Shown: piece by piece, positions 1 to 24,993 of the stretch
How positions within the stretch are numbered: position 1 is the stretch's first letter
Layout of the letters: each line of letters opens with the position of its first letter
Source of the DNA: Dictyostelium discoideum
Lineage: Eukaryota
Direction of reading: 5' to 3'
DNA length: 64,000 bases
Assembly (NCBI GenBank): GCA_000004695.1
Contig: CM000152.2
Location: 1,888,001 to 1,952,000 of the forward strand
Program-made: the position numbers and the translations under genes
The notes under the pieces: generated by a model
What the model was told of the DNA's origin: nothing
What the model saw: only the letters and a program-made list of their open reading frames with translations
Database searches by the model: none

Positions 1-3460
<3,460 letters not shown>

Positions 3461-4131
3461 TATTTCATTGATTTAAAAGGGTGAGCGATTTAGTTAAAAA
3501 ATAAATAAATTAATAATAAATAAATTAATAAATAAACAAATAAATAAATAAATAAAATTTACAATAAAAAAAAATAAAAAAAATAAAAAATTTTAAAAAG
3601 AAAAAGATTTTTTTTTTTTTTTTATTTTTAATTTTTTTTTTTTTTTTTTTTTTTTGATTTGTTGTCAATGGAAAAAAGATTTTTATTTTATTTTTTATTT
3701 ATTTTTTTTTTTTTTTTTATATTTTATAAATTTTAATTATTATTTTTTTTTTATAAATTAAATCTAATTATAACATTTATTTTTTTTAAATCGAAACTAA
3801 CCTAACCTATTTATTGCATATTGGTTGATTGAATTTGTTATTGAACCAAAAAAATAAAATATAAGAAAAATAAAAAAAAAAAATAAAATAAAAAATAAGA
3901 TAAAATAAAATAAAATGAAATAAGATAAAGTGTTTTAGAGAAAAAAAAAAAAAAAAAAAAAAAAAATCAAAGAATTAAAAAAATGGTAATAAAAAATATT
4001 AGTTATAAAATGAAAATAAGATTTGGAAATAATTAAATTAATTAATTAATCACTCGTTTAATTAATAAACGAATATCAAGATTCTTCGAAGGTGTTCTTT
4101 TTTTTTTTTTAATTTTTATTTTATTTTATTT

Positions 4132-4165
<34 letters not shown>

Positions 4166-4316
4166 GAATCTTTTTTTTTTTTTTTTTTTCTGAAACGTTT
4201 AATTTTTTTTTTTATTTTTTATTTTTTATTTTTTATTTTATTTCAATCTTCATCTTAGGAAATTTAAATAAAAAAAAAAAAAATAAAAAAAAAGATAATA
4301 TTTATATAATATAATT

Positions 4317-5775
4317 ATGAATAGATCAATTTTAAAATTTGTTAAAAATGGTATTATATCATCATCATCAAGAATAAATAATAATGGTTTTATAAATAAG
4401 AATAATAACAATAGATGGTTTGCAACTTTACCACAACCAAATAGAGGTATTGCTGGTGAAAAACAACCAATTTATTTGGATATGCAATCAACAACTCCAA
4501 TCGACCCAAGAGTTTTGGATGCAATGTTACCATTATATACTGAAAATTATGGTAATCCACATTCAAAAACACATGCATATGGTTGGACTTCAAATGATTT
4601 AGTTGAAGATGCAAGAGAAGTATGTTGTTGTAATTATTATGTATAATTATTATTAATAATAATTAATATATATATATATATTAACTTTTTTTTAATTTTA
4701 TTTTTTTTATTTTTTTTTTTTATAGAAAGTTTCAAAAATTATTGGTGCAGATTCAAAAGAAATTATATTTACAAGTGGAGCAACAGAATCAGGTAATATT
4801 GCAATTAAAGGTGTAGCAAGATTTTATAAAGAAAAGAAAAACCATATTATTACAACAGTTACAGAACACAAGTGTATATTAGATTCATGTAGACATTTAG
4901 AGATGGAGGGATTTAAAGTGACTTATTTACCAGTGGGTGAAAATGGCTTAGTAGATTTAGAGTTATTGAAGAACACAATTACACCACAAACATCATTGGT
5001 AACAATTATGGCAGTTAATAATGAGATTGGTGTAGTTCAACCTATTAAAGAGATTGGTAAAATTTGTAGAGAGAATGGTGTTTTCTTCCACACCGATGCT
5101 GCACAAGCAGTTGGTAAGATACCAATAGATGTCAATGATATGAATATTGACCTCCTCTCGATTAGCGGTCACAAAATATACGGTCCAAAGGGTGTGGGTG
5201 CATTATTCGTCAGACGTAGACCAAGAGTACGTATCGAGCCAATCACAACTGGTGGTGGTCAAGAACGTGGTATTCGTAGTGGCACTGTCCCATCGACATT
5301 GGCAGTTGGTTTGGGTGCCGCATGTGATATAGCATTGAAGGAGATGAATCATGATGCCGCTTGGGTTAAATATTTATATGACCGTCTCTTAAAGGGTATC
5401 ACTGATAATATTCCAAATGTTAAAGTAAATGGCGATTTAAATGCACGTTACTATGGTAATTTAAATATCTCTTTCTCTTATGTCGAGGGTGAATCCCTTT
5501 TAATGGCAATCAAAGATGTCGCATGTTCAAGTGGTAGTGCCTGTACCTCCTCCTCCTTAGAGCCTTCCTACGTACTTCGTTCTTTAGGTGTTGAAGAAGA
5601 TATGGCTCACTCTTCAATTCGTTTCGGTATTGGTCGTTTCACAACAGAACAAGAAATTGATTACACAATTGAAATCTTAAAAAAGAATGTTCAACGTCTT
5701 AGAGATATGTCACCACTTTGGGAAATGGTTCAAGAAGGTATTGATATTAAAACAATTGAATGGAGTCAAATTTAA
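4317..5775 (+). CDS. nfs1: Cysteine desulfurase (NifS/IscS/NFS1-type, mitochondrial). Two exons: 4317..4619 and 4726..5775, about 451 aa.
   Basis: The N-terminal presequence-like region is followed by '[40 protein letters not shown]' and '[41 protein letters not shown]' (PLP-lysine SGHK). The C-terminal block '[21 protein letters not shown]' carries the active-site Cys. The intron has a GTATGT donor at 4620 and a TATAG acceptor ending at 4725. The phase agrees with ORFs 4317 and 4903. Confidence 0.85.
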
Positions 5776-5849
5776 ATTAAATTTAAAAAAACTAAAAACT
5801 AAAACCACAAATTATTATTATTATTAATTATTAAATAAAATTTTAAAAT

Positions 5850-5888
<39 letters not shown>

Positions 5889-5936
5889 AAAACAAAACAA
5901 AAACTACCTTTTAATTTATTTTATTTATTTATTTAT

Positions 5937-6265
5937 TTATTGTTTATAAAATAATTCAGAAAGGAAATTTTTAGTATCAGTTGGTGATGTAACTGTGAAT
6001 GATTTTGTAATTCTTGGATCATTTGCAATTTCGTAATCATTACCACCAACAAATGTTTTATCACCAAAAAAGTAAATTGTTTTATATTTATCCTCTGGTA
6101 AATGACGTAAACAATAAGTTTTATCCCAACCAATTGGGAAAACATCAAAACTAATTTGACCACCAATTGAATATTGTAATCCTAATGATTGGAATTTCTC
6201 TTTTAAAATTGATACCATTGTTGGTCTAATTTTATGTTCCTAAAATTAATTGAAAATAAATTAAT

Positions 6266-6330
<65 letters not shown>

Positions 6331-6891
6331 CTATTTCTATTATCATAATTATTAATTTAAAAATTACTTACCAAGTCATATTTTTCAAATTCTTCACGTT
6401 CTTGTTGTGAACAATTTCTACCAATTGGGGAAATATTAATCATACCATTTCTAAATTCAACAAAAGTACCTCTTTTAATTGGAATATCAAGATCAGCGAT
6501 ATAATGTAAAACAAAGTTAATAAACTTTTTAATATTTTCTTCACCTAAAAATTTTTTAATATCCTAATAATGTAATTTAAATATTATTAATTAAAAAAAA
6601 ATGTTGGGAGGAGTATATATATATTTTTTTTTTTTGAAATTAAAAAAATAATAAATAATAATAATTACTTGAGTTGCTAATAATGAACCATCTTTAAAAG
6701 ATAATAAACCATTTTCAGCAAATAGATAATGGAATTCATTAATACAATTTTCACCTAATTGTTCTTTAATCTTATTAATATCTGAACCACCAACAACACC
6801 TAATTCAACTTTGGTTCTTAATCCTGCTAAAAAATCTTTCATTTCTGGTGTAATTACCTTTTTTAGAAAATGATTAAATTAATATATGTAT

Positions 6892-6927
<36 letters not shown>

Positions 6928-7062
6928 TTTGCCAAAAATAGAATGAGATTTTTTTTTAGGATTTTTTTTTTTTAGGATTTTTTTTTTTAACATTACATTT
7001 CTTGGTTTTGTTAATGTACCATCAACATCAAATAAGCAAATTGTATTTGGAACTAAAGACAT
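5937..7062 (-). CDS. Phosphomannomutase (PMM, HAD family). Four exons on the minus strand: 6997..7062, 6669..6857, 6372..6563 and 5937..6239, about 249 aa.
   Basis: '[15 protein letters not shown]' is the HAD DxDGT motif and N-terminal signature of PMM. Other conserved blocks are '[32 protein letters not shown]', '[30 protein letters not shown]' and '[24 protein letters not shown]...[18 protein letters not shown]'. All exon lengths are in phase 0, and donors are GTAATG, GTAATT and GTAAGT. Confidence 0.85.
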
Positions 7063-7145
7063 TTTATTATTAAAAATATATTTTTGTAATAATATAAAAG
7101 TGATGGGTGTAAGAAAATTAAAAAAGAAAAAAAAAAAAATTTATG

Positions 7146-7176
<31 letters not shown>

Positions 7177-7353
7177 TTTGGATGACTCATGTTCGCAGTG
7201 AAAGCACACTTTATTTTATTTTTTTAATTTATTTTTTTTTTTTTTTTTAATTTTTTATTTTTTTTTCATTTTTTTTTAATTTTTTTATAAATTTTTCATT
7301 TTTTTTTTTATTTTTTATTTTATTTTCCAATTGATAAAATTAAATTAAATAAA

Positions 7354-8877
7354 ATGTCATTAAATATTGAAAAAGTTAAAGAATTTAGTAATAAAGCATG
7401 GGATGAAAATATTTTACCAACACTTTCAAAATATATTGAAATTCCAAATCAATCACCATTATATGATGCAGAATGGGCAACCAATGGTTATACAGAAGAA
7501 GCAATTCAATTATTAGAGAAATGGATCTTAGCACAAGGTATCAAAGGTATTTCATGTGAAATTAAAAGAATTGAAGGATTAACACCAATTATTTTCATGG
7601 TAGTCGAAGCAACCAAAACTGAAAAAGTTAAAACTGTACTTTTATATGGTCACATGGATAAACAACCACCACTCACTGATGCATGGGATGAAGGATTACA
7701 TCCATACAAAGCAGTCATCAAGAATAACAAACTCTATGGTCGTGGTGGTGCAGATGATGGTTATTCAACATTTGCTTCAATCTCTGCAATCAAAGCATTG
7801 CAAGAACAATCAATTCCACATGATCGTTATGTAATTATCATTGAAGGTTCCGAAGAATCTGGTTCAATCCATTTACCACAATATGTTGAGAAGTTCCAAG
7901 CTGAAATTCAAATTCCATCATTGGTAGTTTGCTTAGATAGTGGTTGTGGTAACTATGATCAATTATGGATGACCTCATCACTTAGAGGTGTTTTAACTGG
8001 TGATTTAACTGTAAAGGTTTTAAATGAAGCATGTCATTCCGGTAGTGCCTCTGGTATCGTTCCATCTTCATTCCGTATTCTTCGTCAAGTTTTAGATCGT
8101 GCTGAAAATCAATTAACTGGTGAAGTCGATAAAAGATTACACGTTGAAATTCCACAACATCGTTTAGATCAAATCGCAAAATGTGCTGAAATTTTAGGCG
8201 AAACCATCTATGATGAATTCTCATGGTACAAAAATACCACTCCAGTCACTAAAGATTTAACCCAATTGATGATCAACAAAACTTGGTATCCAACTATTTG
8301 CATCACCGGTGCTGAAGGTATTCCACACACTTCAAATGCTGGTAATGTCATGAGAACTCACACCACCGTTAAAGTTAGTGTTCGTTTACCACCATCATTC
8401 AAAGCAGCTGATGCATCAACTGTATTAAAAGAAATTTTCGAAACTAATCCACCATATGGTGCTGAAGTTACCTTCAAAATGGATAAATGTGCTTCAGGTT
8501 GGGATTCACCACAAACTAGACCAGAATTAGAAAAAGCATTAGGAGAAGCTTCAAATCTTTTCTTTGGCAAAGACCACGTATACATGGGTGAAGGTGGTTC
8601 CATCCCATTCATGAAAATGTTACATGACCGTTTCAATTGTCAATTTATCGTTACTGGTTTATTAGGTCCAGGTTCAAATGCTCATGTTAGTATCTTTATT
8701 AAAATTTTTTTTTTTTTTTTTCCAAATCATTTTCCATTATCAATACTAACAAACATATTTATTTTATAAAATTATATACATATATAGGGTCCAAATGAAT
8801 TCTTAGATATTCCATTTGCCAAGAAATTATTAAGTTGTGTTATTTATTTATTAGATGCTCATTCCAAGTTTGATTAA
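7354..8877 (+). CDS. M20A-family metallodipeptidase, similar to cytosolic nonspecific dipeptidase CNDP2/Dug1. Two exons: 7354..8685 and 8788..8877, about 473 aa.
   Basis: 'TVLLYGHMDKQPP...NNKLYGRGGADDGYSTFASISAIKAL...IIIEGSEESGS' matches the CNDP metal-binding blocks. The C-terminal 'GEGGSIPFMKM...GPGSNAH|GPNEFLDIPFAKKLLSCVIYLL' is restored across a GTTAGT...TATAG intron. Confidence 0.7.
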
Positions 8878-9151
8878 ATAAATAAACCTTTATTTCATTA
8901 TATCTTTAAAATCATTTTATTATTTTATTATTATTTTTATTTTAAATTTATTTAATAATTTAATATATTAATGGAAATCCAATTCACTATTTCCAATTAA
9001 TAATGAAGGTTTAAACAAATTCAACAAATTTTAACACAAACACAATATCTAATTTTTTTTTAAGTATTTTAACATTCTAATAAATAATAAATAATACAGA
9101 TTAAAAGTTTCTTTTTTAAAAAATTTTGTTTTATTTAATAATTAAGGTGAA

Positions 9152-9452
9152 TTAACAACATCTACGATGACGACGACCGATATCAATGTCAAAGTTAATA
9201 ACATTTACATTTGAACCACCACCACAACCTCCACAACCATTATTGAAACCACCTAAACCGCCCCATCCTCCAAAATCATTATCAAAACATGCTGTTGAAT
9301 TAACATTAGCCATTGATCCATTATAGTTATAGGTTGATATTGAACTTGATGTAATTCTAGTTGAATTTGAAATTGATGAAATTGAATCTAGTAAATTATT
9401 TATTATTTTAAAAATAATTAGTAATATATAATTTTCAAGTGAAGTTTTAATT
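9152..9452 (-). CDS. Small Gly/Cys/Asn-rich hssA/2C/7E-family-like protein, copy A. Two exons: 9440..9452 (ATGACAATTTTTA) and 9152..9387, 82 aa ([14 protein letters not shown]...[39 protein letters not shown]).
   Basis: A 13-nt first exon is followed by a GTAAAT donor and a ...TTTACTAG acceptor. The translation is a small glycine/cysteine-rich protein with an '[10 protein letters not shown]' tail, which is characteristic of the Dictyostelium hssA/sigN-like family as I recall it. Three paralogous copies lie nearby. Confidence 0.55.
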
Positions 9453-9870
9453 ATATTAGGAATAAAATAAAATATTTACTAAAAATTGTCATTTGTATGA
9501 TATTTATTTGTTTTTAATTTGTTTTTTTTTATTTGTATTTTATTTATTTGTTTTTTTATGTATTATTGTTTTTTTAAAAATAAATTTATAGTTTTTAAAA
9601 TTAAAAAAAATAAAAAAAAATTAATATAAAAAAGGTTGAAAGAAATATAAATTAGTTTTTGAAAAAAATAAAAGAAATTTTAAACACTTATTTTGTTATT
9701 TTATAATAAATTTCAATTTTTAAATAAACAAATCAAACAATTTAATTTATTTATATTAAAAAAAAAATATAAAAAAATAAAAATAAAATCATTTAAAAAA
9801 TAAAAAAAGTTATAAAATACAAAAAACAAATATTTAAAAAAAAAATTAAATAAATAAATAAGTATAAAAA

Positions 9871-10232
9871 ATGGCAATTTTTAGTAAATATTATTTTTTA
9901 TTTATTTTTAATTTTTTTTTTTTTTATTTTTTAAAAATAATAACTTATCATTTCTTACCATTAAAACATAATAAATAATAGAGTCAATTTCTTCAATTTC
10001 AAATTCAACTGGTTTAATGGGAAGTTCAATTGGTGCCTCTAATCTTGATGGATTTGTTAGTAATGGTAATTGAATTTCATGTTTTGATGGTTGTTGTGGT
10101 GGTTTATGTGGATGGGGTGGTTTTAATGGATTGGGTGGTAATGGTGGTTTTAATAGTGGTGGTTGTGGAGGTTCAAACACAAATATAATTAATCTTGACA
10201 TTGATATTGGTCGTCGTCGTAGATGTTGTTAA
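9871..10232 (+). pseudogene. hssA-like copy B. It has the same two-exon layout (exon 1 9871..9883 ATGGCAATTTTTA; exon 2 from 9982). An in-frame TGA at 10071-10073 truncates it relative to its paralog at 11385..11734, so it is a probable pseudogene or truncated allele.
   Basis: The sequence is collinear with copy D. A single C-to-G difference (aattGaattt versus aattCaattt) creates the stop. Downstream, the family-typical '...CFDGCCGG...[13 protein letters not shown]' is still readable in frame up to 10232. Confidence 0.45.
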
Positions 10233-10670
10233 TTCACCTTAATTTAATTAATAAATAAAAGTGATAATTTTCATCTTTTTTTCTCCTAAATTTAAAATTA
10301 AAGTTTTTATTAATTTAAATTAATACCTTTTACATTTTATTTTATTTTTGCATATTCCAAATAATTATTAAAATAATTTTAAAATTGAAACTCTTTTATT
10401 TCAATTTTAATTTCTTAGTTCCTTTGAATTATCTTTTTTAACTCCAAACTTCAGGGGGAAAAAAAATAGAATAGAGGTATATTTGGAAAAAAGGAGGAAA
10501 GAAAAAAAAAAAAAAAAAAAAAAATTTGGATTTATTAAAAATTAAGATCTTTAAAAATGAAAAATAAAAAAATAAAAAAATAAAAAAATAAAAAATTAAT
10601 TATATAATTTTTGGAAAATATCTTTAAAACAAAAATTCAAATTATTATTTTATTTATTAATTTGAGTAAA

Positions 10671-11010
10671 TTAGCAACATCTACGGTGATGACGACGACC
10701 AATATCAATGTCAAGGTTAATAACATTAACATTTGAACCCCCACCACAACCATTATTGAAACCACCTAAACCGCCCCATTCTCCAAAATCATTATCAAAA
10801 CATGCTGTTGAATTAACATTTGCCATTGATCCATTATAATTACAGGTAGCGATTGAACTAGATGTAGTTCTAGTTGAATTTGAAATTGATGAGATTGTAT
10901 CTTATAAATTGTTTATTAATTTAAAAATTATTAGTATTTTAATATTTTCAAGTGAAGTAATTTCTTAAACTTATTTTATTCCTAAAAAAATATTTACTAA
11001 AAATTGTCAT
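10671..11010 (-). CDS. hssA/2C/7E-family-like protein, copy C. Two exons: 10998..11010 and 10671..10900, 80 aa ([80 protein letters not shown]).
   Basis: This is a tandem duplicate of copy A, offset by about 1.53 kb. It has the same 13-nt first exon, a GTAAAT donor, a TATAAG acceptor and a conserved C-terminal tail. Confidence 0.55.
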
Positions 11011-11384
11011 TTTTATTTTATTTTTATTTGTTTTTTATTTGTTTTTTTTTAAATTGTTTTTATATTTTTATTTTATTTATTTATTTAAAAAGAAATTTAT
11101 AGTTTTTTTAAATTTTGCAAAAAAAAAAAATAAAAAATAAAAATAAAAAAGTGGAAAGAATAATAAACTTGTCTAAAAAAAAAAAAAAGGAAATTTAAAA
11201 CACAAATTTTGTTGTTTTATAATAAATTGCAGTTTTTAAATAAACAAATCAAACAATCTATTTAACTATTAATATTGAAAAAAAACTATTAAAAAATAAA
11301 AAATAAAATCATTTTAAAAAAAAAAGTTGTATAAATAAAAAAAAAAACTTTATTATATTTTTAAAAAAAAAATAAACAAATAAA

Positions 11385-11734
11385 ATGGCAATTTTTAGTT
11401 AATATTATTTTTTATTTATTTTTTTTTTTTATTTTTTTAAAAAATAATAACTTATCATTTACTTACCATTAAAACATAATAAATATCAGAATCAATTTCA
11501 TCAATTTCAAATTCAACTGGTTCAATGGGAAGTTCAATTGGTGCCTCTAATCTTGATGGATTTGTTAGTAATGATAATTCAATTTCATGTTTTGATGGTT
11601 GTTGTGGTGGTGGTTTAGGTGGATGGGGTGGTTTTAATGGATTGGGTGGTTTTAATGGTGGTTGTGGAGGTTCAAACACAAATATAATTAACCTTGACAT
11701 TGATATTGGTCGTCGTCGTCGTAGATGTTGTTAA
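11385..11734 (+). CDS. hssA/2C/7E-family-like protein, copy D. Two exons: 11385..11397 and 11490..11734, 85 aa ending ...[29 protein letters not shown].
   Basis: The first exon is ATGGCAATTTTTA, with a GTTAAT donor and a CAG acceptor. Exon 2 contains the supplied ORF 11525..11734. The sequence is paralogous to copies A-C. Confidence 0.55.
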
Positions 11735-11914
11735 TTTACTCTAATAATAAATTAAATGATAGTTTTTATCTTTTTTCACCTAAATTTAAAAATAAAATTT
11801 CTTCACATTCTAAATATTTAATTTTAAAGTTGAAACTATTTTTTTTTTTTTTTTTTTTGAAATAAAAGCGAAATGTAATATTTTTTAAGATCTTAGAGTA
11901 ATATATAAAACAAT

Positions 11915-12325
11915 ATGATTAGAGAAGAACAGGTATTCATTGGTTCACATTTATTTCCACCACCCTATTGTATTGAAAATTCATTAAAAAAATTAGTTGA
12001 TATGTATAATGTATTAAAATTAAATGGCACAGATAGAATAGTTTTATCTTCTTGGTTAATGTATCAATTATTGGCACTTCATCCTTTTTCTGATGGTACT
12101 GGTCGTTTATCTCGTCATTTTTGTAGTTGGTCATTGCTTTCAAATGGTTCAATATTACCAATTTCTTTTGGTAATGTAAAAGGTGTAAATAAAGGTCATA
12201 AAACTTTGATTGTGTGTGTTCAGAATTCAAGATCAAATGTAGGTATTCCAAGTGCCCTTTCAACTAGAATTCTTTTATCTCTTTTTAATTCATTAAATAA
12301 TTTAGATTCAAAACAAAAACAATAA
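11915..12325 (+). CDS. Fic/Doc-fold domain fragment ORF (136 aa) with a variant core motif HPFSDGTGRLSR. It is possibly incomplete at the 5' end or degenerate.
   Basis: The translation 'FPPPYCIENSLKKLVDMYNVLKLNG...RIVLSSWLMYQLLALHPFSDGTGRLSRHFCSWSLLSNGSILPISF' aligns to the Fic core (hxFx[D/E]GNGRxxR followed by GYPp). The N is replaced by T. No upstream exon was identified. Confidence 0.4.
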   Translation: MIREEQVFIGSHLFPPPYCIENSLKKLVDMYNVLKLNGTDRIVLSSWLMYQLLALHPFSDGTGRLSRHFCSWSLLSNGSILPISFGNVKGVNKGHKTLIVCVQNSRSNVGIPSALSTRILLSLFNSLNNLDSKQKQ

Positions 12326-13302
12326 ACCGCACTGTAAATGTTAATATAAATATCGGATCTTAATTTTTATTTTCAAATAGATAATCTTTAAATTTAAAAC
12401 TCATTTTTCCAACTCATTTTTTTTTTTTTATTTTTAAAAAAATACCAAAAAACTAATTTAAATCTAGATATATTATGAATTATTATTTTTTTTTTTTTTT
12501 TTTTTTTTTTACTAAACTAACAAAGAAAACTGCCAACAACATTAAATGGATTATTCATTATTATTTTAAGTTTACTCCTCACAATTCTCAAATGAAATCT
12601 TCATTACCATTTCTTTAAAAAAAAATCACAAAAAAATCACAAAAAATCAAAAAAAAAAAAAAAAAAGAACCAGGCAATTTTTTTTTTTTTTTAGACACGA
12701 GATATTTTGTGAAAGGAGGTAAAAAATAAAATAAAATTAAATAAATAAAAATAAATATATAAAAAATAAAAATAAAAAGAATAATATTTACATTATTAAC
12801 ATTTAAAAATAATGTTTTAGATTTTTAATTAATTATATTTAAATTTAAACGTTCAAATTAACCCGATATTTTAATAGAATTAAATATTATCATATTTTGA
12901 AAATTTTTTTTTTTTTTTTTTTTTTTGGACGTTGGTGAAAAATCATAGTACTTTTTTTATTTTTTTTATTTTTTTATTTTTTTTTTTTTTTTTACAATTT
13001 GATCAAATTGTTTGCTTGTAAAAAAAATTTTTTTTTTTTTTTTTTGTGTTTTAAATAAAAAAAAAAATAAAATAATTAAAATAGAATTATTGGACTTTAA
13101 TAAAACATTTCTATTTTTTTTTTTTTTTTTTCAAATTACATTAGAAAATAATAGTAATAATAAAAAATTGCCACAATCATCATAGTCATATTCGTTAACT
13201 TTTATATGCCTTTTCTCTCAGACACAAATCAGTTTTTTAGTTTTAGTTTTAGTTTATTTAAAGATCTCTTCAAATAATTATAATTGATCAATATCTAAAA
13301 TT

Positions 13303-14361
13303 ATGACCGATCGTAAGCCTCTTCTGTCAAAAAATGAACAGGATTACGATGAAATTAATGGAATTTCTATGGGAAATAGAGCTGTAAATCCATCAGTTCT
13401 TCAACATAATGTTGTTATTTTACCAATCGATGAAAATAGTAATAATAAAGACAATAATAGTACAAATAGTAGTAATAATAATAATAATAATAACAATAAC
13501 AATAATAATAATAATAATACATATCAAGAAATTGGTAAAGGTTCAAATACAACAACTACAAATACAACAACTACAAATACAACAACTACAAATACAACAG
13601 ATAAAAATAAAAAAAGAAAGAAGGATAAAATTCCATCTCTTTATATTGCAGAAAAAGAACAACCAATTACATTTGACGATTTTGGAATTACAGATGATAC
13701 AAATCCAATAGAAGTTAAACATCAAATTCAAAATCATATGTTTGGTTTTAAACCATTCAAAAGTAAACTTACAAAGAGAAGAGTTGAAGAACGTTCGCCT
13801 GAAGTTCAAAGTTTATATTCCGATGAGCGAAAAGATACAAATCCAAGTAAGTTTATTTATAAACATTATTAGTACAATATTTCAAAATTAATTAATTATT
13901 TATTAATTTTATATTTAAAATAATAATAATTATAATTATAATAGATTCAATTCCAAATACAATTGGAAATGTAGTTTATTGTATAATATTTGGATTCCCA
14001 TTATCAATTCTATATGTAATTTGTAGTATAATATTATGTTTAACTTATTTTGGATTACCATATGGTAAATTATTTTGGAGATTAAAAGGATTTGTTTTTT
14101 GGCCATTCGGAAAATATTTACAATTATCAACTACAAATTCATTATTTGGTCAAGATGAAGAGAGATTACCAATTAGTAGTGGAAGAAGAAGAGCTCAATC
14201 AATTGCACATAGAAAATTAACTTTATATAATTATATTGGTGCTTTTGTTTATTATCTTTTTATTGCACCATTTATTATAATTTCTGAAACTATAGTTTTA
14301 TCTTTAGCTTGGATGTTAGTTGTTTCAATTCCAACTGCAAAAGTACTTATTTTTTAAAAAT

Positions 14362-14419
<58 letters not shown>

Positions 14420-15976
14420 TTTATTAACTTAAATATTATTTTTAACAAAATATATATATATATATTAATTTTTATTTAATTTTAGAATCACACTAAATTA
14501 TTAACTCATTTAATAACAAATCCATTAAAATTAAGAATTGAAGATTATCCAAGAGCAGATTGTCAAATTTTATTATATCCAGTTGAAGCATTTAATAGAT
14601 TTTATTATAAATATACAATTAATGGAATGAATGTTGTTTTAGTTAGTGTGTATTTATTTTTTTTAAAAAAAAAAATATTTATATATATATAGAATTATTT
14701 TACTAATTTTTTATTTTTTTATTTTATTTTATTTTTAGATTTATTACCATTTGTAATTATATCATTGGTATTTGGATTCTTTTTAGAAGATAAGATAAAT
14801 CCAATTGTTATATTTATTTGTTGTTTATTATCAACAATTCCATTATCATATTATAATGGTATGGCGATTGCAAGTTTATCAGCACAAACTAGTTTTGCAA
14901 TTGGTGCACTTATTAATGCAAGTTTTGGATCGATTATAGAGCTAATTCTTTATGTTGTTTCAATTAGTGGTGCACAAGAAGAGGTAGCAAGATCAGCGTT
15001 AACAGGAGCATTATTAGGTTCAATGCTATTGATTCCAGGTTTATCTATGGTTATTGGTGGTTTAAAACATAAGGAACAACGTTTCAATCCAACTTTAATG
15101 GGAGTAAATACCATTCTTTTGATGATTGCTGTTGTTGCAGCATTTGCACCAACATTATTCTATAAAATTTATGGTAGCTTTGGATTTAGCTGTACATCCT
15201 GTATTCAACAACCAACCAATGTTACAGTGGATGGTGTTGCAATCAATGGAACCACCACCAATACATTGATGGATTGTGGTAAATGTACAATCGTCTCGTC
15301 GGATTTAGACGAAGATCCAATTTACACACAAAAAGCACGTACACTTATGTATATTTGTTCTGGTATACTTCCATTGACCTACTTCATTGGTCTTTTATTC
15401 ACATTGAAAACTCATACTCATATACTTCATGCACCACCAGAAAAGAAGAAACAAGAGCCTACTGATGAAACAAAGGAAAAGAGTATAGAATATGAATGGT
15501 CAAAATTACAATGTATCATTGTGTTATTGGCTTGTACAACCATGTTTGCATTGGTATCAGAGAAAATGGTTGGTACGATCGATCCAGTGGTTAGTGCATT
15601 GGGTTTAACACATGAATTTTTAGGTGTAACCATTCTTGGTATCATTCCATCCGCTGCAGAGTATCTAAATGCCGTCCAATTTGCAATTCATAATAATATG
15701 CCTTTGGCTTTAGAAATTGGTGCTTCTGCTGCCGTTCAAATCACTTTATTCCAAATGCCAGTATTGGTTTTCATTTGTGCAGTTTATAATCATCTAAGTA
15801 GTGAAGGATCTTTCACTTTAATTTTCCCATTAATGGATTTCTTTGCTATCTTTTTTGGTGTAATGGTTATGAATTTAGTATTTTCAAATGGTAGAACAAA
15901 TTATTTCATTGGTTCAACTCTAGTTATCATTTATTTAGTAATTGTATTTTGTTTTTATTTTACTCCAGTTGCTTGA
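13303..15976 (+). CDS. Cation/H+ exchanger of the CaCA/CAX family (Ca2+:H+ antiporter-like) with a long N-terminal extension. Four exons: 13303..13846, 13945..14342, 14486..14645 and 14739..15976, about 779 aa.
   Basis: Two alpha-repeat signatures are present: 'GALINASFGSIIELILYVVSISGAQEEVARSALTGALLGSMLLIPGLSMVIGG' and 'LGVTILGIIPSAAEYLNAVQFAIHNNMPLALEIGASAAVQITLFQMPVLV'. Many TM helices follow. Exon 1 is hydrophilic with poly-N/poly-T tracts. Exon 2 is a hydrophobic block ('GFVFWPFGKY...') resembling the DUF307/YccF-type extension seen on fungal CAX-like proteins. Donors are GTAAGT, GTACTT and GTGTGT, and phases check against ORFs 13303 and 14765. Confidence 0.65.
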
Positions 15977-16583
15977 ACTTAAAAAAAAAAAAAAAGGTTT
16001 TAATTTTATTATTCCTGCATTATCCATAAAAAGAGTTTCAAAAGTTTTAAAGAAAATATCAAGAAAAATATCAAAGGTAAAAAAAAAAAAAAAAGATCTC
16101 AAAAAAAAAAAATAAAAAATAAAAAAAAAAAAAATTAATTATTAAAAAAAAAATCTAAAAATAATCTGTTTTTTTTTTTATTTTTTATTTTATTTTTTTA
16201 CCTTTCTGCAAATGTATTATTTTTAATTACCAATATATTTTCACACCCCAACAAATCTATTCTTTTTTTTTTTTTAAAGACTGAAATAATTTTCGGTGGA
16301 GTATTCCACTTTTTTTTATTTTATTTTTATTTTTTTTTTATTTTTTTTACTTTTTTATTTTTTTTTATTTTTATTTTTATTTTTTTTTTTTTTTTTTACA
16401 TCAAAGTTATCAACCACACAATTTTGATAATCAAAAAAAAATAAAAAATAAAATAAAATAATAATTTAAAATTAGTTAAAGAATAATAATTTAACAATAA
16501 TTTTAAAAATAGATTAATTTAGTTTTTTTTTTTTTTTTTTTTCCCTCATTGCTTGAATAAATAAAAAAAAAAAAAAAAAAAAA

Positions 16584-18514
16584 ATGGAATACTATTATTA
16601 CATTATAATAGCAGCAGTTGGTGGCTTTGCAATATTGACATTTATAATTATAGTTGTATTGCGATTAAAAAAATCACAAAAAATGAGAGAGCCATTATTA
16701 CCAAAAGAAAAAGGAAATGTTTTTGTTTATAAAAGAGATACTCAAGTTCAAGAAAAGGGTAAATAAATAAAATAAATAATAATAATAATAATTCATATGT
16801 CTTTCATATTATTATTATTATTATTTCATATACTAATATTACTTTAAAAATTAACTTTGTTTAGAGGAACAAGTTATGATGAATGCAAGATTATATTTAA
16901 GATCAACAATTTATAGTTTACAAGATAAAATACCAAAATTTGGATCAAGATCTGATAAAGTATATTTTGGAGTTTTAGGTAATTCATTAAATAAATTAGA
17001 GAATGATAGAATTATGGCAATGGTACCAGTTTCAAAACATTGGCCAATTCCATTAAATTCAGAAGCTGGTAGAACCACATTTAGAACCATCATTAAATCA
17101 TTGGAAATTCATCCATTCATTAGTGTACCATTATTGGTTGATTTTATACCAGAGAAACATGTTGCTGTCTCTGTTAGACCTTTCTATGCCGATAGAGGTT
17201 CATTAAGAGATTTCATACATAAATCAAAACCAAAAATGCCATACGCTGATAAATATGATACTCATCTTCAATTAAATGAAAAAATAGTTTCAAAATTTGG
17301 TAGACAAATTTTAGAAGCTTTAATATTTTTAAAAAATCATAATTTCCCTTATTTTCATTTAAATTCTGCAAATGTTTTAGTTGATGATCAAATTTGTTTG
17401 TAAGTTTTTTAATTTAAAAAAAATATATATATAAAAAAAAAAAAAAAAAAAAAATTACTAATTAATTTATTTATTTATTTATTTATTCATTTATTTTAGA
17501 ATAAGTGATTATGAAAATTCATTTTTAGGATTAGAACCAAGATTTTCAGATTTTATTAGACAACATAATGAAAAGATTGATCCAGATGTATTATCATTTG
17601 GTTTAGTATTATTTGAGATGGCATGTGGTTATGAGATGGAGAATCCACATTCAGTTGATATCTCTATTCCAGCACATTGCTATCCAGAAGTTAGAAAAGT
17701 ATTAGAAGCAATTTTTAAACCATTCTATGGTACACCAATTACATTGGAAGAGTTGAGTAAAATGGATTTCTTTTCATATCATAAATTTAAGAATTTACCA
17801 CTTCACAGATTAACTTATACTTCAAGAGAACGTGATATGATGGATGCTGTTATAAAGTTAAATAAAACTTTTCTTTCAACAAATTCAAAACCAAATTCAA
17901 AAGATTTATCTCAACCAAAATTAAAAGATTTAAAAAAACAAAAAAAGAGAAAACAATTAGTATTCACTCAATCTTTTGAACCTATTAAAATGGAGAGTCA
18001 AAATGGTGGTGGTGCTGCTGGCGGTGAATATGGAAATGAGGGTGGTTATGCAATTTCAACTTCTTCTTCATTACCAAGTAATTTCTTGGCAAATGTAAAA
18101 CCTGCAAATTCAACATCATATTCATTACTTTCAAATACTACAACAAATACAACTAATACTTCAACAAGTAGTAGTTTAAATAGTAGTTTCAATAGTAACG
18201 TTTCAACTTCATATTCAAATGCAACAACCACTACAAATACCACTTCTGCATCAAGTGTTTCACCACCAATTTCTTCACCACCTCCACCTCCACCTCCACC
18301 ACCACCATCCAAATCTTCAGGACCACCACCTCCACCACCACCACCACCCAAATCTTCAGGTCCTCCACCTCCACCACCACCCAAATCCTCCCCACCACCA
18401 CCAGCTGATGGCAGTAGAAAAGGTTTACTATCCTCAATTGAATCTTTTTCTTCTTCAAAATTAAAAAAAACAAAAACTGTTGATAAAAGTGGTCCGTTAT
18501 TAAAAAAATCTTAA
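16584..18514 (+). CDS. Membrane-anchored protein-kinase-like (probable pseudokinase) protein with a C-terminal proline-rich region and a WH2-like motif. Three exons: 16584..16758, 16865..17399 and 17500..18514, about 574 aa.
   Basis: Exon 1 encodes a TM helix, 'YYYYIIIAAVGGFAILTFIIIVVLRL'. A kinase-fold remnant follows: 'ADRGSLRDFIHK...ILEALIFLKNHNFPYFHLNSANVLVDD' (degenerate HRD/VAIK) and 'DVLSFGLVLFEMACGYEM'. The tail has SPPPPPPPPPPSKSSGPPPPPPPPP runs, then 'RKGLLSSIESFSSSKLKKTKTVDKSGPL' (the WH2 pattern LLxxI...LKKT). Donors are GTAAAT and GTAAGT. Confidence 0.55.
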
Positions 18515-19000
18515 AACAAAACAAAACAAAACAAAACAAAAAAAAGAAACCAAAACAAAAAATAAAAAATTAAATTATTTAAAAAAAAAAAAAAAAGCAC
18601 ACATTTTATATGATCATGATGATGACGATTAGTTTTTAATTTCTATTCCTTTATAGTGTGAGGTTAAAAATAAGTTAGAAAAAAAAAAATTGAACATGCA
18701 CAAATTAGAGCATTATCATTTTTTTACATCGTTTAATTTTTTTTTTTTTTTTTTTTTTTCCTAAAAAATAAAGCACCGCTTTGGGTGATAATTATGTATC
18801 TGTGGTAAATCTTTAAAAAAATATAAAAAAAAAAAAATTTCAAATAAACTAATTGATTTTCTTTAATAAGGTTTTTTTAAATTAAATTATAATAATATTT
18901 GAATTTCAAACTAATCATTTTCATTAAAAATGGAATTTGATTATCCTTTTTTTGAAAATAAAAAAAAAAAAGAAACAGTGTCATATCTAAGCTATTTTTG

Positions 19001-19032
<32 letters not shown>

Positions 19033-19065
19033 CACACCAATACCTCTATTTTTTGAATTGGATAA

Positions 19066-19088
19066 GGGGGTGGGGGTGGGGTAAGGGG
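19066..19088 (+). other. G-quadruplex-forming motif G5-T-G5-T-G4-TAA-G4 in an otherwise roughly 90% AT intergenic region.
   Basis: 'gggggtgggggtggggtaagggg' read directly. It lies about 400 bp upstream of the small GTPase-like gene start at 19472. Confidence 0.6.
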
Positions 19089-19471
19089 TAGTGAAATTGG
19101 ATTAAAATAAAAAATTCAATATAATAATATATAAGAAAATAAAATAATATTTAAAAAAAACAATGATTTTGAGTGTGTTGGTGTATGGGTGCAATTTTTA
19201 TTTTCAGATAATTGAATTTAAAATAAAAATAGAAATAATTATATTTGAATTTGTAATAAATTAACAACAATAATGATAATAATAACAATATTAATAGAAA
19301 AAAAAAAATAAAAAAAAAAAAAAAATTAAAATAGATAAAAAAAAAAATATAATTTTTTAATTTTATTTTTTTATATTTCAGGACAAATAAATGGTTTTTT
19401 AATTTTATTTTTAAATTTAAATTATTATTTAATTTTATGATTAAAAAAAAAAGTAAAACAAATAAAAAAAA

Positions 19472-19718
19472 ATGTATAAAAATTTAAATGTATGTGTTTT
19501 AGGAAGTGTAGCTGTTGGTAAAACTTCAATGATTGAATCATTGACAAATGGAAATTATGATAGAGAACATATTCCAACAATTGAAAATAGATCAATTAAA
19601 TTATTACAACACAAAAAAAAAGTTTATAATATATTTATTCATGATACAGGTTTGTAATCTTTAAATTTTTAATATTTTATTTTTTATTTTTTAATAAAAT
19701 AATAATAAAATTAATAAT

Positions 19719-19772
<54 letters not shown>

Positions 19773-20182
19773 TTCCAATAGCTTCAATCAGAGAATTAAA
19801 TTTCTTAGTAAAGGAATCAATTAGCCAATGTGATTCATTTATAATTGTATTTTCCTTAAATGATGCAAACTCAATTGAATCAATTCAATTTTATAAAGAT
19901 TTAATATATGATACATTAAAGTGTAAAAAAGGGTCAATACCAATTGTAATCGCTGCAAATAAATTAGATACAAAGGTAAATGATCCAACAATATATCAAA
20001 AAATTAAAAAAATTAATAGGTTATATTCATTACCATGTATTGAATGTACTTCAAAAGATAATGAAACAACAAATTCAGTTTTTAAATTATTATTAAATAG
20101 TGTTGAAAAAAAGACAACAAAAAGACAAATAATCCCAAAAGTAAAGTTTTACTTTAAAAAAAAATTTTCTTTGACCTATTAA
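19472..20182 (+). CDS. Atypical Ras-superfamily small GTPase-like protein. Exon 1 is 19472..19649 and exon 2 is 19782..about 20182. The 3' end is uncertain and there is no CAAX box.
   Basis: The P-loop 'VCVLGSVAVGKTSMI', 'IVIAANKLDT' (NKxD) and 'ECTSKD' (SAK-like) are present. Switch II reads 'HDTGASIREL' rather than DTAGQE. The intron has a GTTTGT donor and a CAATAG acceptor, about 132 nt. Confidence 0.5.
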
Positions 20183-20643
20183 ATTAAATTAAAAAATAAA
20201 TAAACTTTTGTAAATATGAAATTAATTTTTTTTTTTTCTTTTTTTTTTTTTTTTGCCAATTTAAAATAAAACCCTCCGAAATTTAATAATTTTTTGTGTT
20301 TTTCTTTTTTTTTTTCATTTTTTTTTATTTTTTTATATTTTTATTTTTTTTAAATTAAAAAAAACTTGAAAAAATGGAAACTAAAAATATCTGATTTATT
20401 TAAAAAAACCAGTGGAGATTAAAATATTTAGTGGTACCCAGGTGAAAAAAATTTTATTAACTCGAATATTTCTTTTTTGATCTTGAACATAAAAAAAAAA
20501 AAATAAGAATTGGAATTGTCCAAAAAGTATTTAAATTTTTTTTTTTTTTTTTTAATTTCCATATTCCCAAAAATAAATATTTAAAATAAAAAAGAATTAA
20601 ATAATTAAATATAAATAAAATAAAAAAAAAAATATTAAAAAAA

Positions 20644-22404
20644 ATGATTGAAAGTAAAATCCCTTCACAATTTTCAATAAATTCACATAATAATGTATGT
20701 GAAGCTTCAAGTTATTCTGATCATAGTTTTGATGATAATACCCAATCAATTCCTTTATCACAAGTAGTGATTAGATCAGATTTTGCCAATGAAACATCAG
20801 AGAGACAATCCAAAATTATAATTGAAAGATTCAATCAAGGTATAAAGAATCCAGCATTTACAGATTCTCCAGCATTGGGTCGTGCTTTTCCACGTTTAGA
20901 TTCAAGTTATTTTGCTTTAAGTAATCGTGACAAAGTTGCTGAATTATTCGATCCACGTGGTCAACGTTTTAGTACAGTTTATTCTGCAGATCCAACCACT
21001 ATCATCGAATACAATGGTGGAATCCCAAAAACTAGTCGTTATTTCACTTTATACGGTAAAACTGTTTTAAATGTGCCATCTGGTCATTTCGCAAAAGCCT
21101 TATCAAAGAATCGTCCAGTAATTTATGGTGAAGGTCCACATGTAATAATTGATCCAACTTTTATATTTGATGAAGCAACTGGCTTTGTTAATCAACAAGA
21201 ACCATTTATAAACCATTCAACCATTAATGTTCTTCGTGTTCCATCTGGTAAAGTTGCAAAAGTTTGGGTTGGTACTCAACCATTGATTTTAGAATCTCGT
21301 CGTGAACCATACGTTTTTGTTGATGCTCAATTTAAAGTTGTCGAACAAATAGGTAGTCAAGATAAATACTTTCATAATTCATCAGCTACATTTATGGAAC
21401 ATGGTTCAATTAAAAGAATTATTCCACATACTGGTGAAGTTGCAGTCACATATAATAATGGTGTCCTTGAAATTATTCAAACACCAAAAGATGGTAAACC
21501 AGTTATTATCGATTCTCCAACTCATAATTTTGAATGTTTCATTCAAACAAGTTTACAAACTTGTTTATTCCCATCAAATGAAACTAAACAACAAGCTATT
21601 AAAGATAATAAAAATGCGACATCTGATGAAGTTAATTTAAAAATTTTCCAAACTAGAGATTCACTTCGTGTTGGTGTTGTATTGGTAATTGCATTTAGAA
21701 TAATTGATCCTCAAATTGCACTCACTAAATTAGGTAAAGAAGGTATTATCAATCATATTGAAAATATTTCATTCGCCGATATGGGTAAAGCAATTCAATT
21801 AAGTACTTTACAAGAGATTATGTATTTCAATGATACAAAGCCATCTGCAACTATTGATGCATCTGCTCAAACAATTCAAGATCGTGTAAAATCTCATTTG
21901 GCAAGAGATTTATATGAATATGGTATTGAATTAGCTCGTCTTCAAATTGAAACAATAAAAGTTTTGGATACCGAAATCGCTAAAAAACTTGCTGGTCAAT
22001 CAGTTACATCTGCTGAATTCACAACCAAACAAGCAACGCTTGTAAAAGAATATGATATCAAAACCACTGAAGCTCGTCTTAAAGCTGAAACCGATAATAT
22101 TGCATTAGAACAAAAAGGTATAGCAATTATTGCAGAAGCTCAAGCAAAATTAGAATCTGCTAAAAAACAAGCTGAAGCTTTACTTGTTACAGCTAATGCT
22201 CAAAAGAAAGTTCAGGAAATACAAGGTGAATTATATTCCAAATTCCCGATTCTCGCTGAAATTGAATTGGCTAAAATTAAATCCGAAGCTTTAAAAAGTT
22301 CAACACTTTATATTACTCCTCAAGATGCTGGTAACTTTATGAATTCACCATTCTTTTTCATGGAAAGAATGCTTGGAAAACAACAAACCAACATTAAAAG
22401 TTAA
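20644..22404 (+). CDS. SPFH/band-7 flotillin-like protein (vacuolin-like), paralog 1. Single exon, 586 aa.
   Basis: An SPFH-like core '[36 protein letters not shown]...[24 protein letters not shown]' is preceded by an internal partial repeat '[13 protein letters not shown]...HVIIDPTF'. The C-terminal coiled coil with (E/A)-rich '[26 protein letters not shown]...[28 protein letters not shown]' resembles the flotillin domain. Size and architecture fit Dictyostelium vacuolins, but this is recalled, not verified. Confidence 0.5.
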
Positions 22405-23214: not shown

Positions 23215-24993
23215 ATGATTGAAAGTAGTTCATTTATGAAAAAAACATCATCTGAAAATTCAATTGGTAGTCGTTCTAATATTCATGAAGCTTCAACATT
23301 TTCTTCAGAACATGAAAATGGTGATCAATCCCTTACCATTTCACAAATTGTAATTAGATCAGATTTTGCCAATGAAACATCAGAGAGACAATCGAAAATT
23401 ATTTTAGAGAGATTCAATGAAGGTATAAAGAATACAGCATTCACCGATTCTCCAGTATTGGGTCGTGCTCAACCTCGTCTTGATGTTAGTTATTTTGCAA
23501 TGGCACATCGTAATCAAATTGTAGAGTTATTCGATCCACGTGGTCAACGTTTTGGTACAGTTTATTCAGCTGATCCAACTGTTGAAATTAGATATCTTGG
23601 CTCAGTTGCAAAAACATGTCGTTATTTCGGCTCATTCGGTAAACACGTTTTAAATGTCCCTTCTGGTCATTTTGCAAAAGCAATGACAAAGAATCGTCCA
23701 ATAATTTATGGTGAAGGTCCACATGTAATTATTGACCCAACCTTTGAATTTGATGAAAGATATGGTTTCGTTAATCAACAAGAACCATTTATAAACCATT
23801 CAACCATTAACATTCTTCGTGTTCCATCTGGTAAAGTCGCAAAAGTTTGGATTGGTACTCAACCATTAATTTTAGAATCTCGTCGTGAACCATACGTTTT
23901 TGTTGATGCTCAATTTAAAATGGTTGAAGATACTAGTGAAAGTGGTAATAATAAATACTTTAAAAATTCATCAGCTACATTTATGGAACATGGTTCAATT
24001 AAAAGAATTATTCCACATACTGGTGAAGTTGCAATCACATATAACAATGGTATTTTAACAATTATTCCACCACCAAAAGATGGTAAACCAGTTATTATCG
24101 ATTCTCCAACTCATAATTTCGAAGGTTTCATTCAAACAAGTTTACAAACTTGTTTATTCCCATCAAAAGAAACTAAACAACAAGCTATTAAAGATAATAA
24201 AAATGCGACATCTGATGAAGTTAATTTAAAAATTTTCCAAACTAGAGATTCACTTCGTGTTGGTGTTGTATTGGTAGTTGCATTTAGAATTGTTGACCCA
24301 GAAATTGCACTCACTAAATTAGGTAAAGAAGGTATTATCAATCATATTGAAAATGTTTCATTCGCCGATATGGGTAAAGCAATTCAATTAAGTACTTTAC
24401 AAGAGATTATGTATTTCAATGATACAAAACCATCTGCTAACTCCACCAATGAAACTGTACACACAATTCAAGATCGTGTAAAATCTCATTTAGCAAGAGA
24501 TTTATGTGAATATGGTATCGAATTAGCTCGTCTTCAAATTGAAACAATGAAAGTTTTGGATTCCGAAATCGCTAAAAAACTTGCTGGTCAATCAGTTACA
24601 TCTGCTGAATTCACAACCAAACAAGCAACACTTGTAAAAGAATATGATATCAAAACCACTGAAGCTCGTCTTAAAGCTGAAACCGATAATATTGCATTAG
24701 AACAAAAAGGTAAAGCAATTATTGCAGAAGCTCAAGCAAAATTAGAATCTGCTCAAAAACAAGCTCAAGCATTACTAATTACTGCTGAAGCTCAAAAGAA
24801 AGTTCAAGAAATGCAAGGTGAATTATTTACAAAATATCCAATTCTCGCTGAAATTGAATTGGCTAAAATTAAATCAGAAGCTCTTAAAAGTGCAACACTT
24901 TATATTACTCCTCAAGATGCTGGTAACTTTATGAATTCACCATTGGTTTATATGGATAGATTACTTGGACACCAACAAAAATTAGAAAAATAA
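23215..24993 (+). CDS. SPFH/band-7 flotillin-like protein (vacuolin-like), paralog 2. Single exon, 592 aa.
   Basis: It is about 80% identical to 20644..22404 over its full length, differing mainly in the first 35 residues and a short insertion ('[11 protein letters not shown]'). The pair is a head-to-tail tandem duplication with an 810-bp spacer. Confidence 0.5.

Follow-up and report, generated by a model that had tools for sequence, protein, structure and literature searches.

What is the 136-codon open reading frame (ORF) with a Fic-like core that lies next to an hssA-like cluster in Dictyostelium discoideum, and how did it come to hold only part of a Fic domain? We addressed this question in a stretch of 64,000 nucleotides (64 kb; hereafter the window; GC content 23.9%), for which a first reading of the letters, the original prediction, had proposed three answers: the 3′ exon of an unannotated Fic gene, a decaying Fic gene that was duplicated or horizontally acquired, or an inactive protein with a Fic fold. 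The ORF is already in the databases, as XP_641780.1 / EAL67798.1 and as Q54WZ7, a “Fido domain-containing protein” of D. discoideum AX4. A literature search returned no paper mentioning DDB_G0279299 or any Dictyostelium Fic protein. The predicted position beside an hssA-like cluster is confirmed by an hssA-like Gly/Cys-rich ORF ending in RRRRRCC (11525–11734), which lies 180 bp upstream on the same strand and has no match in Pfam. The hssA-like cluster (9117–11803) is itself a tandem duplication with a period of 1503–1516 bp, each unit of which carries oppositely oriented small Gly/Cys-rich ORFs.

Comparison with Pfam PF02661 (Fic/DOC), suggested in the original prediction, gave a significant match to the ORF at 40.2 bits (gathering cutoff 24, E = 6.4e-10). 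By profile score this far exceeds chance and supports the nearly complete Fic core that had been proposed. The alignment spans ORF residues 7–73 and profile positions 28–92 of 93; the N-terminal part of the domain is absent, again as anticipated. The Asn-to-Thr replacement noticed in the motif is real: Thr62 of HPFSDGTGRLSR sits where the Fic consensus has Asn, and the ORF departs from the full signature HxFx(D/E)GNGRxxR at this position. The best relatives of the ORF among solved structures were human FICD (E = 2.4e-6), Caenorhabditis elegans FIC-1 and IbpA Fic2. The FICD alignment covers query residues 3–83, from the flap through the motif helix; its first element, VFIGSHLFPPPY, which we take to be the flap, is also the first structural element of the domain retained in the ORF. 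NCBIfam models of bacterial Fic and Doc proteins all scored far under their cutoffs against the ORF (SoFic E = 0.0026), and TIGR01550 (DOC_P1) was insignificant (13.5 bits, cutoff 38.65, E = 0.061). The (S/T)xxxE(G/N) inhibitory motif of class I–III Fic proteins does not occur in the 136 residues. Base composition of the ORF is fully Dictyostelium-like (GC 27.7%, GC3 10.9%); as the other coding ORFs of the window range from 26 to 38% GC, it lies at or below them, and the slight GC excess claimed at the outset was mistaken.

A word-indexed homology search with the ORF returned only the ORF itself; its relatives, 317 in number, came from an exhaustive HMMER scan. The closest seven are 574–617 aa long. 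The ORF matches the final ~136 residues of these proteins (E = 1e-89 for the D. discoideum protein ACTFIW_006538, or P0002), and a second, weaker alignment lies closer to their N-termini. These full-length relatives each contain two Pfam Fic stretches and two HPFxDGNGRxxR motifs, both canonical in most members. The named ones are ACTFIW_006538 and ACTFIR_008250 of D. discoideum, two proteins of D. citrinum (including ACTFIU_003601), PPL_00220 of Heterostelium album, a protein of Balamuthia mandrillaris and a protein of the chytrid Borealophlyctis. The family also occurs in unnamed environmental sequences, and our seven-member alignment consisted of P0002, P0152, P0003, P0004, P0006, P0007 and P0008. 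Best matches, synteny and DNA collinear with the ACTFIW_006538 gene establish that the ORF is orthologous to this family. It lacks the two-domain architecture of 574–617 aa and corresponds only to the C-terminal half of domain 2.

Before domain 1, but not domain 2, the intact proteins share a conserved SNxIE[DE] motif resembling the (S/T)xxxE(G/N) inhibitory helix, and Pfam detected neither TPR nor any other additional domain in them. A literature search on the intact tandem-Fic proteins found nothing, and a eukaryotic family with two tandem Fic domains is apparently undescribed. No orthologue from D. purpureum or any other dictyostelid surfaced among the relatives found, which suggests patchy loss. 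In D. citrinum the orthologue (L002 9775–11770, aligned with L001 9798–11770 of D. discoideum) lies in another neighbourhood, with terpene synthase, calcipressin and MoeA genes. Because this neighbourhood differs and homology is confined to the gene and short flanks, the gene, with little else around it, has changed its position in one of the two lineages.

Two D. discoideum assemblies, GCA_054859355.1 (L001, encoding ACTFIW_006538, KAM9963310.1) and GCA_054859385.1 (L004, encoding ACTFIR_008250, KAM9953187.1), contain the intact gene at the locus itself. Gene order in both is NifS-like, PMM, peptidase M20, hssA-like repeats, the 574-aa Fic gene, further genes, Ras and Band_7, and the order in the window is the same. 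The 574-aa gene is a single uninterrupted exon encoding two Fic domains. With blastn, window 2221–11904 matched L001 5–9798 and window 11907–22347 matched L001 11307–21725; because the two blocks are collinear around the gap, L001 9799–11306 has no counterpart in the window. L004 revealed the same gap, with a missing length of 1521 bp compared to 1508 bp in L001. Of the missing 1508 bp, 202 bp belong to the 5′ flank and 1306 bp to the coding sequence (codons 1–435). In the base-level alignment, homology on the left stops at 11904 after AGTAATAT and restarts on the right with AAAACAATAT at ~11907. The features of the truncated locus are collected in Table 1.

Table 1. Features of the truncated Fic locus, in window coordinates.
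Feature	Position	Strand	Remarks
Retained distal part of the hssA-like/Fic intergenic spacer, ending in ...AGTAATAT	11735–11904		Collinear with L001 up to 9798 (blastn, base-level alignment)
Deletion junction, two bases (AT) assignable to neither flank	11905–11906		blastn and base-level alignment; also in L003
In-frame TAA formed at the junction	11906–11908	+	Corresponds to Lys436 (AAA) of the intact gene; closes the frame 5′ of the ORF
Fic-like ORF, 136 codons plus stop	11915–12325	+	ATG start; annotated as DDB_G0279299 / UniProt Q54WZ7
Start codon ATG	11915–11917	+	From ATA (Ile439), as found in D. citrinum and in both intact alleles of D. discoideum
VFIGSHLFPPPY, flap-equivalent, preceding the pre-motif helix	11933–11968	+	FICD chain alignment; non-helical ~440–452 in the full-length model
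Fic signature HPFSDGTGRLSR	12080–12115 (residues 56–67)	+	Catalytic His56, Asp and both Arg kept
ACT, Thr62, the “non-canonical” residue	12098–12100	+	AAT-to-ACT, N500T, specific to the window lineage
CAT, His68	12116–12118	+	CTT-to-CAT, L506H, specific to the window lineage

The ORF thus equals codons 439–574 of the intact tandem-Fic gene, and the junction TAA sits three codons before its ATG. Residues 437–574 of ACTFIW_006538 and the translated window 11909–12322 share 94% amino acid identity (130/138); over the same 138 codons, nucleotide identity to the intact D. discoideum allele is 95.4% (414 nt). The stop codon and the 3′ flank are common to the window copy and the intact D. discoideum alleles. 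Because the two-domain architecture is common to D. citrinum, distant Amoebozoa and a chytrid, the long form is, on these comparative grounds, ancestral, and the window carries the deletion. The original prediction had held that disruption of the region in other D. discoideum strains would speak against it; the situation is the reverse, since the AX4 lineage is disrupted and the other D. discoideum assemblies are intact.

These data bear on the proposal that the ORF is a terminal exon whose upstream partners have gone unannotated. The match does start abruptly in the middle of a Fic domain, and AG dinucleotides occur near the 5′ end of the ORF. However, the intact orthologue is one uninterrupted exon, and the DNA alignment shows that the missing codons have been physically deleted. 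All three forward frames of 11735–11915 are full of stops, and the next feature upstream is the hssA-like gene on the same strand. Searches by tblastn with nine or more family members found nothing else in the window; with about 150 family proteins against the whole 64 kb, only the known ORF was hit, with nothing for residues 1–436 of ACTFIW_006538. No upstream exon appeared within 11740–11915, the interval that had been singled out at the outset, and reading 11735–11960 in all six frames likewise gave nothing beyond the known ORF. With the ORF already annotated, its orthologue single-exon, no other part of the gene in the window and a non-coding 180 bp upstream, the 3′-exon proposal is refuted, and we give it practically no chance of being correct.

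Could the truncation instead be an artefact of the reference assembly? The extreme AT-richness and long homopolymers of this region are error-prone and would favour such an explanation. Against it stands an independent chromosome-level assembly, GCA_054883475.1 (L003), which is of the same lineage as the window, and not a separate natural isolate. It has the identical 136-aa ORF and junction, and over 6.4 kb differs from the window by only one SNP and by homopolymer lengths. Because L003 has the identical ORF and junction, we conclude that the deletion is not an assembly artefact, a reading that we regard as highly improbable. The differences between L003 and the window over these 6.4 kb are the SNP at 10244, a 1-nt difference in a T-run at 12977 and, relative to GCA_054883475.1, 22 additional nt in the window's poly-A tract at 14363–14384.

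We also considered that the ORF might be a partial duplicate or a horizontally transferred piece, with a full-length copy elsewhere in AX4. The gene has moved at least once, as the different neighbourhood in D. citrinum indicates, and recall of the word-indexed search is imperfect (a query with P0002 failed to list P0001). Yet intact D. discoideum alleles occupy exactly this locus with collinear flanks, and no AX4 protein other than the 136-aa one appeared in protein searches or among the members of the full-length protein's 90% cluster. Moreover, GC3 (10.9%) is native and the nearest relatives are eukaryotic, not bacterial. An origin by duplication or transfer is therefore very unlikely, if slightly less so than an assembly error. 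Of this option in the original prediction, the decay is right and the origin wrong: the fragment is the orthologue, still in its syntenic position and shortened by a 1.5-kb deletion.

The intact allele contains no direct repeat joining the two deletion endpoints, and the left end of the deletion coincides with the 5′ edge of a (T6A)n tract. Judged by these endpoints, the deletion looks like one of the non-homologous or slippage type. Unequal recombination with the hssA-like tandem repeat was considered as a mechanism, its period matching the 1508-bp length of the deletion. It was rejected: hssA-like copy number is equal in both alleles and there is no repeat at the endpoints, and the match in length appears to be a coincidence. 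We likewise discarded the idea that the left end falls exactly at the edge of D. citrinum homology, as that blast boundary falls within low-complexity, T-rich sequence and unique homology begins ~50 bp further in.

The two intact alleles are themselves rather distant from the window. Across window 2221–22347, L001 and L004 differ from it by a coding dS of 0.02–0.10, 2–4% coding divergence and about 8–12% overall including indels. We take this to be much above the diversity usually quoted for D. discoideum isolates, and these strains may represent a divergent lineage. The window also contains two tandem Band_7 (vacuolin-like) paralogues of 586 and 592 aa (20644–22404 and 23215–24993) with about 88% DNA identity; compared with the other D. 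discoideum assemblies, the first has a rather high dN/dS (0.35–0.38). A 189-aa ORF (13303–13872), located 3′ of the Fic remnant, is rich in Asn/Thr repeats. Its Menin score of 20.9 bits (threshold 23.6) is probably compositional, and it is likely the first exon of a longer gene, as proteins of 787–794 aa are called there in other assemblies.

With D. citrinum as outgroup, the amino acid changes derived in the window lineage are I439M, N500T, L506H, V521I, E526V and M537I, plus four synonymous changes. The ATG and the motif change are thus both derived, and the columns of N500 and L506 are invariant across the seven full-length family members of the alignment. Between the window fragment and the intact alleles, dS is 0.12–0.13 and dN 0.025–0.031 (omega 0.19–0.26), compared to a dS of 0.02–0.10 and an omega of 0.03–0.35 for the flanking genes against L001/L004. 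The branch of the window lineage carries six nonsynonymous and four synonymous changes, a ratio that differs significantly neither from neutrality (binomial p = 0.15) nor from the 4N:5S of the intact alleles (Fisher p = 0.66) in these underpowered tests. Substitution counts do not separate neutral drift from constraint, and loss of constraint is not demonstrated by them. Only 6.7% of possible point changes in the fragment create a stop, so that a frame still open after ~10 substitutions is about a coin toss.

A functional new small protein is the alternative that these numbers might favour: the gained ATG would give rise to a half-Fic polypeptide, non-catalytic, that for example binds a former substrate or partner of the tandem-Fic protein. 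Its 136 codons are open, the ATG arose by point mutation, the ORF is annotated as protein-coding, the motif retains its catalytic His, Asp and both Arg, and pairwise dN/dS is 0.19–0.26. The same open frame with its start codon, and a dN/dS to the intact alleles that is not 1, are the points that speak against a mere relic. However, chance alone would leave the frame open in about half of all cases after ~10 substitutions, and the low pairwise dN/dS is for the most part a record of how the intact alleles, and this lineage before the deletion, have evolved. The conserved promoter-proximal region has been deleted, the domain has lost five of its roughly ten helices and two invariant residues have been replaced; a life-cycle proteome supplement gave no match, which is weak evidence. 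A functional half-Fic protein is in our judgement improbable, though the least improbable of the alternatives weighed here.

In the intact strains, domain 2 shows changes of its own. At codon 494 both intact alleles (ACTFIW and ACTFIR) have Tyr for the catalytic His of Fic motif 2 (YPFSDGNGR; L001 11480–11515, same coordinates in L004). His at this position is kept in the window copy (12080–12082) and in D. citrinum, which makes H494Y a change of the intact D. discoideum alleles; in ACTFIR, Y488H moreover replaces a Tyr that is invariant in the family. Because of H494Y and Y488H, Fic domain 2 may already have lost its catalytic activity, or be evolving under relaxed constraint, where the gene is still intact.

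The consequences for the fold were assessed on predicted structures. Single-sequence AlphaFold2 (AF2) prediction of the 136-aa fragment gave a pLDDT of 36.6, which is uninformative rather than negative. The intact protein, modelled with the family alignment, reached a pLDDT of 79.2 and a pTM of 0.73, and Foldseek matched this model to Fic structures including BT_2513 (3cuc), FICD and Coxiella Fic2, over ~270–300 columns per domain as against the 136 residues of the ORF. The domain 2 model has five helices before the flap (319–332, 336–354, 363–377, 398–414 and 422–432), then a non-helical stretch (~440–452), helices 455–474 and 479–493, the motif loop (494–500) and three post-motif helices (501–514, 532–543 and 552–573). 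According to this model the fragment, starting at residue 439, still has the flap and the catalytic loop, but of some ten domain 2 helices only the five C-terminal ones. Profile coverage and the AF2 model agree that the ORF falls short of a complete Fic fold. Because the N-terminal half of the fold is missing, a stable, active Fic domain is unlikely to form from the fragment. The same holds for the inactive Fic-fold protein suggested at the outset, which is unlikely with half of the Fic domain gone.

What the deletion removed on the 5′ side also matters for expression. Homology between D. citrinum and D. discoideum is restricted to the coding sequence, ~150–200 bp upstream of it and a few tens of bp downstream. 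The ~150 bp of 5′ flank conserved with D. citrinum, which presumably comprises the promoter and 5′ UTR, falls wholly inside the window's deletion. Upstream of the ORF, 180 bp of the former distal spacer remain, directly after the hssA-like stop, with a T21 run at 11840–11858. The remnant may be transcribed by chance or by read-through, and the T21 run and the AT-rich upstream sequence might support some transcription. There is no entry for DDB_G0279299 in the portions covered of the transcriptome, proteome or genome supplements of PMC6198379, PMC7078664, PMC12821622 and PMC3188802, at least one file of which is a filtered subset.

Collectively, we interpret the ORF as the relic of a unitary gene, left by a 1.5-kb deletion in the AX4/NC4 lineage and annotated by virtue of a fortuitous ATG; for this statement as a whole we estimate a probability of about 0.8. 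Its structural part, the deletion of an intact gene, is close to certain. In this interpretation, the D. discoideum ancestor possessed, 3′ of the hssA-like cluster, a single-exon gene of 574 codons for a protein with two AMPylase-type Fic domains in tandem. On the way to AX4, an apparently non-homologous deletion of ~1.5 kb took away ~200 bp of promoter-proximal DNA, the whole of Fic domain 1, the linker and five helices at the start of domain 2. Joining the distal intergenic spacer to codon 436 created the in-frame TAA, and an ATA-to-ATG change at Ile439, three codons further on, gave the remaining 136 codons a start. What the remnant retains of domain 2 is the flap, the loop with the catalytic residues and the five C-terminal helices, with N500T in the GNG anion hole and L506H. 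Because half of the fold is missing and two invariant positions are replaced, it most likely makes no stable or active Fic enzyme. The comparisons above show the deletion and its polarity, the derived ATG and the derived motif change; that the remnant is without function and not expressed is what we infer.

A truncated gene, already listed as a hypothetical Fido-domain protein, is in itself of little import. The annotation of DDB_G0279299 should nevertheless read 5′-truncated remnant, and HPFSDGTGR should not be counted as a natural Fic variant. The AX4 reference laboratory lineage is without an intact copy of a gene that is present in other D. discoideum assemblies, D. citrinum, Heterostelium, Balamuthia and a chytrid, and work on AMPylation in AX4-derived strains is carried out in a background that has lost the tandem-Fic gene. 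AX4/NC4 may be a natural null for what may be the sole Fic-domain gene of D. discoideum, which is more probable than an expressed half-Fic protein. If so, comparing AX4 with isolates that have the intact gene would make the function of the tandem-Fic family directly testable, and the family could be studied by complementing AX4 with a wild allele.

How does this locus compare with known Fic systems? The closest are the intact D. discoideum alleles, which share with the window copy the locus, the flanks, the last 138 codons, the stop codon and the 3′ flank. Together with ACTFIU_003601 of D. citrinum, they encode 574 aa with two Fic domains behind a 5′ flank of their own, whereas the window copy is without codons 1–435. 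In motif 2 the two forms are altered at different positions: the intact D. discoideum alleles have Tyr for His and keep Asn, and the window fragment keeps His and has Thr for Asn. FICD/HYPE, the metazoan endoplasmic reticulum AMPylase/deAMPylase of BiP, is the best solved-structure relative of the ORF; the alignment comprises the flap, the pre-motif helix, the HPFxDGNGR loop and the next helix, and the fold of the intact protein matches as well. However, identity between FICD and the Dictyostelium family is only ~20–30% (E ~1e-6 to 1e-7), the Dictyostelium proteins have two Fic domains and no TPR match, and their domain 1 motif resembling the inhibitory helix reads SNxIE[DE], compared to TVAIEG in FICD. 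The comparison with metazoan FICD and bacterial Fic/Doc that had been proposed thus yielded a closest solved relative but not an orthologue: by sequence comparison and domain content, neither the fragment nor its parent gene is orthologous to FICD, and the bacterial models stayed under cutoff.

Bacterial class II Fic proteins (BT_2513 (3cuc), SoFic and Coxiella Fic2) and IbpA have the Fic fold and signature in common with the Dictyostelium gene. IbpA, also bacterial, likewise combines two Fic domains in a single polypeptide; of these, Fic2 alone was among the matches here. Similarity to the bacterial proteins is remote, and the Dictyostelium gene is eukaryotic in composition and distribution, with no secretion or toxin context. 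Doc, the death-on-curing toxin of phage P1, belongs to the same Fido superfamily, but its motif ends in NKR and that of the ORF in GR; judged by this motif and by the insignificant TIGR01550 score, the fragment is not Doc. The closest parallel in kind is with unitary pseudogenes and deletion relics, which likewise have an intact orthologue at the same locus, have lost most of the coding sequence and the promoter region and carry replaced invariant residues; relative to its intact orthologue the window copy is disabled in just this way, having lost both coding sequence and regulatory DNA. Unlike typical deletion relics, it has gained a chance ATG and keeps an open frame, and because of these two features the fragment has been annotated as a gene.
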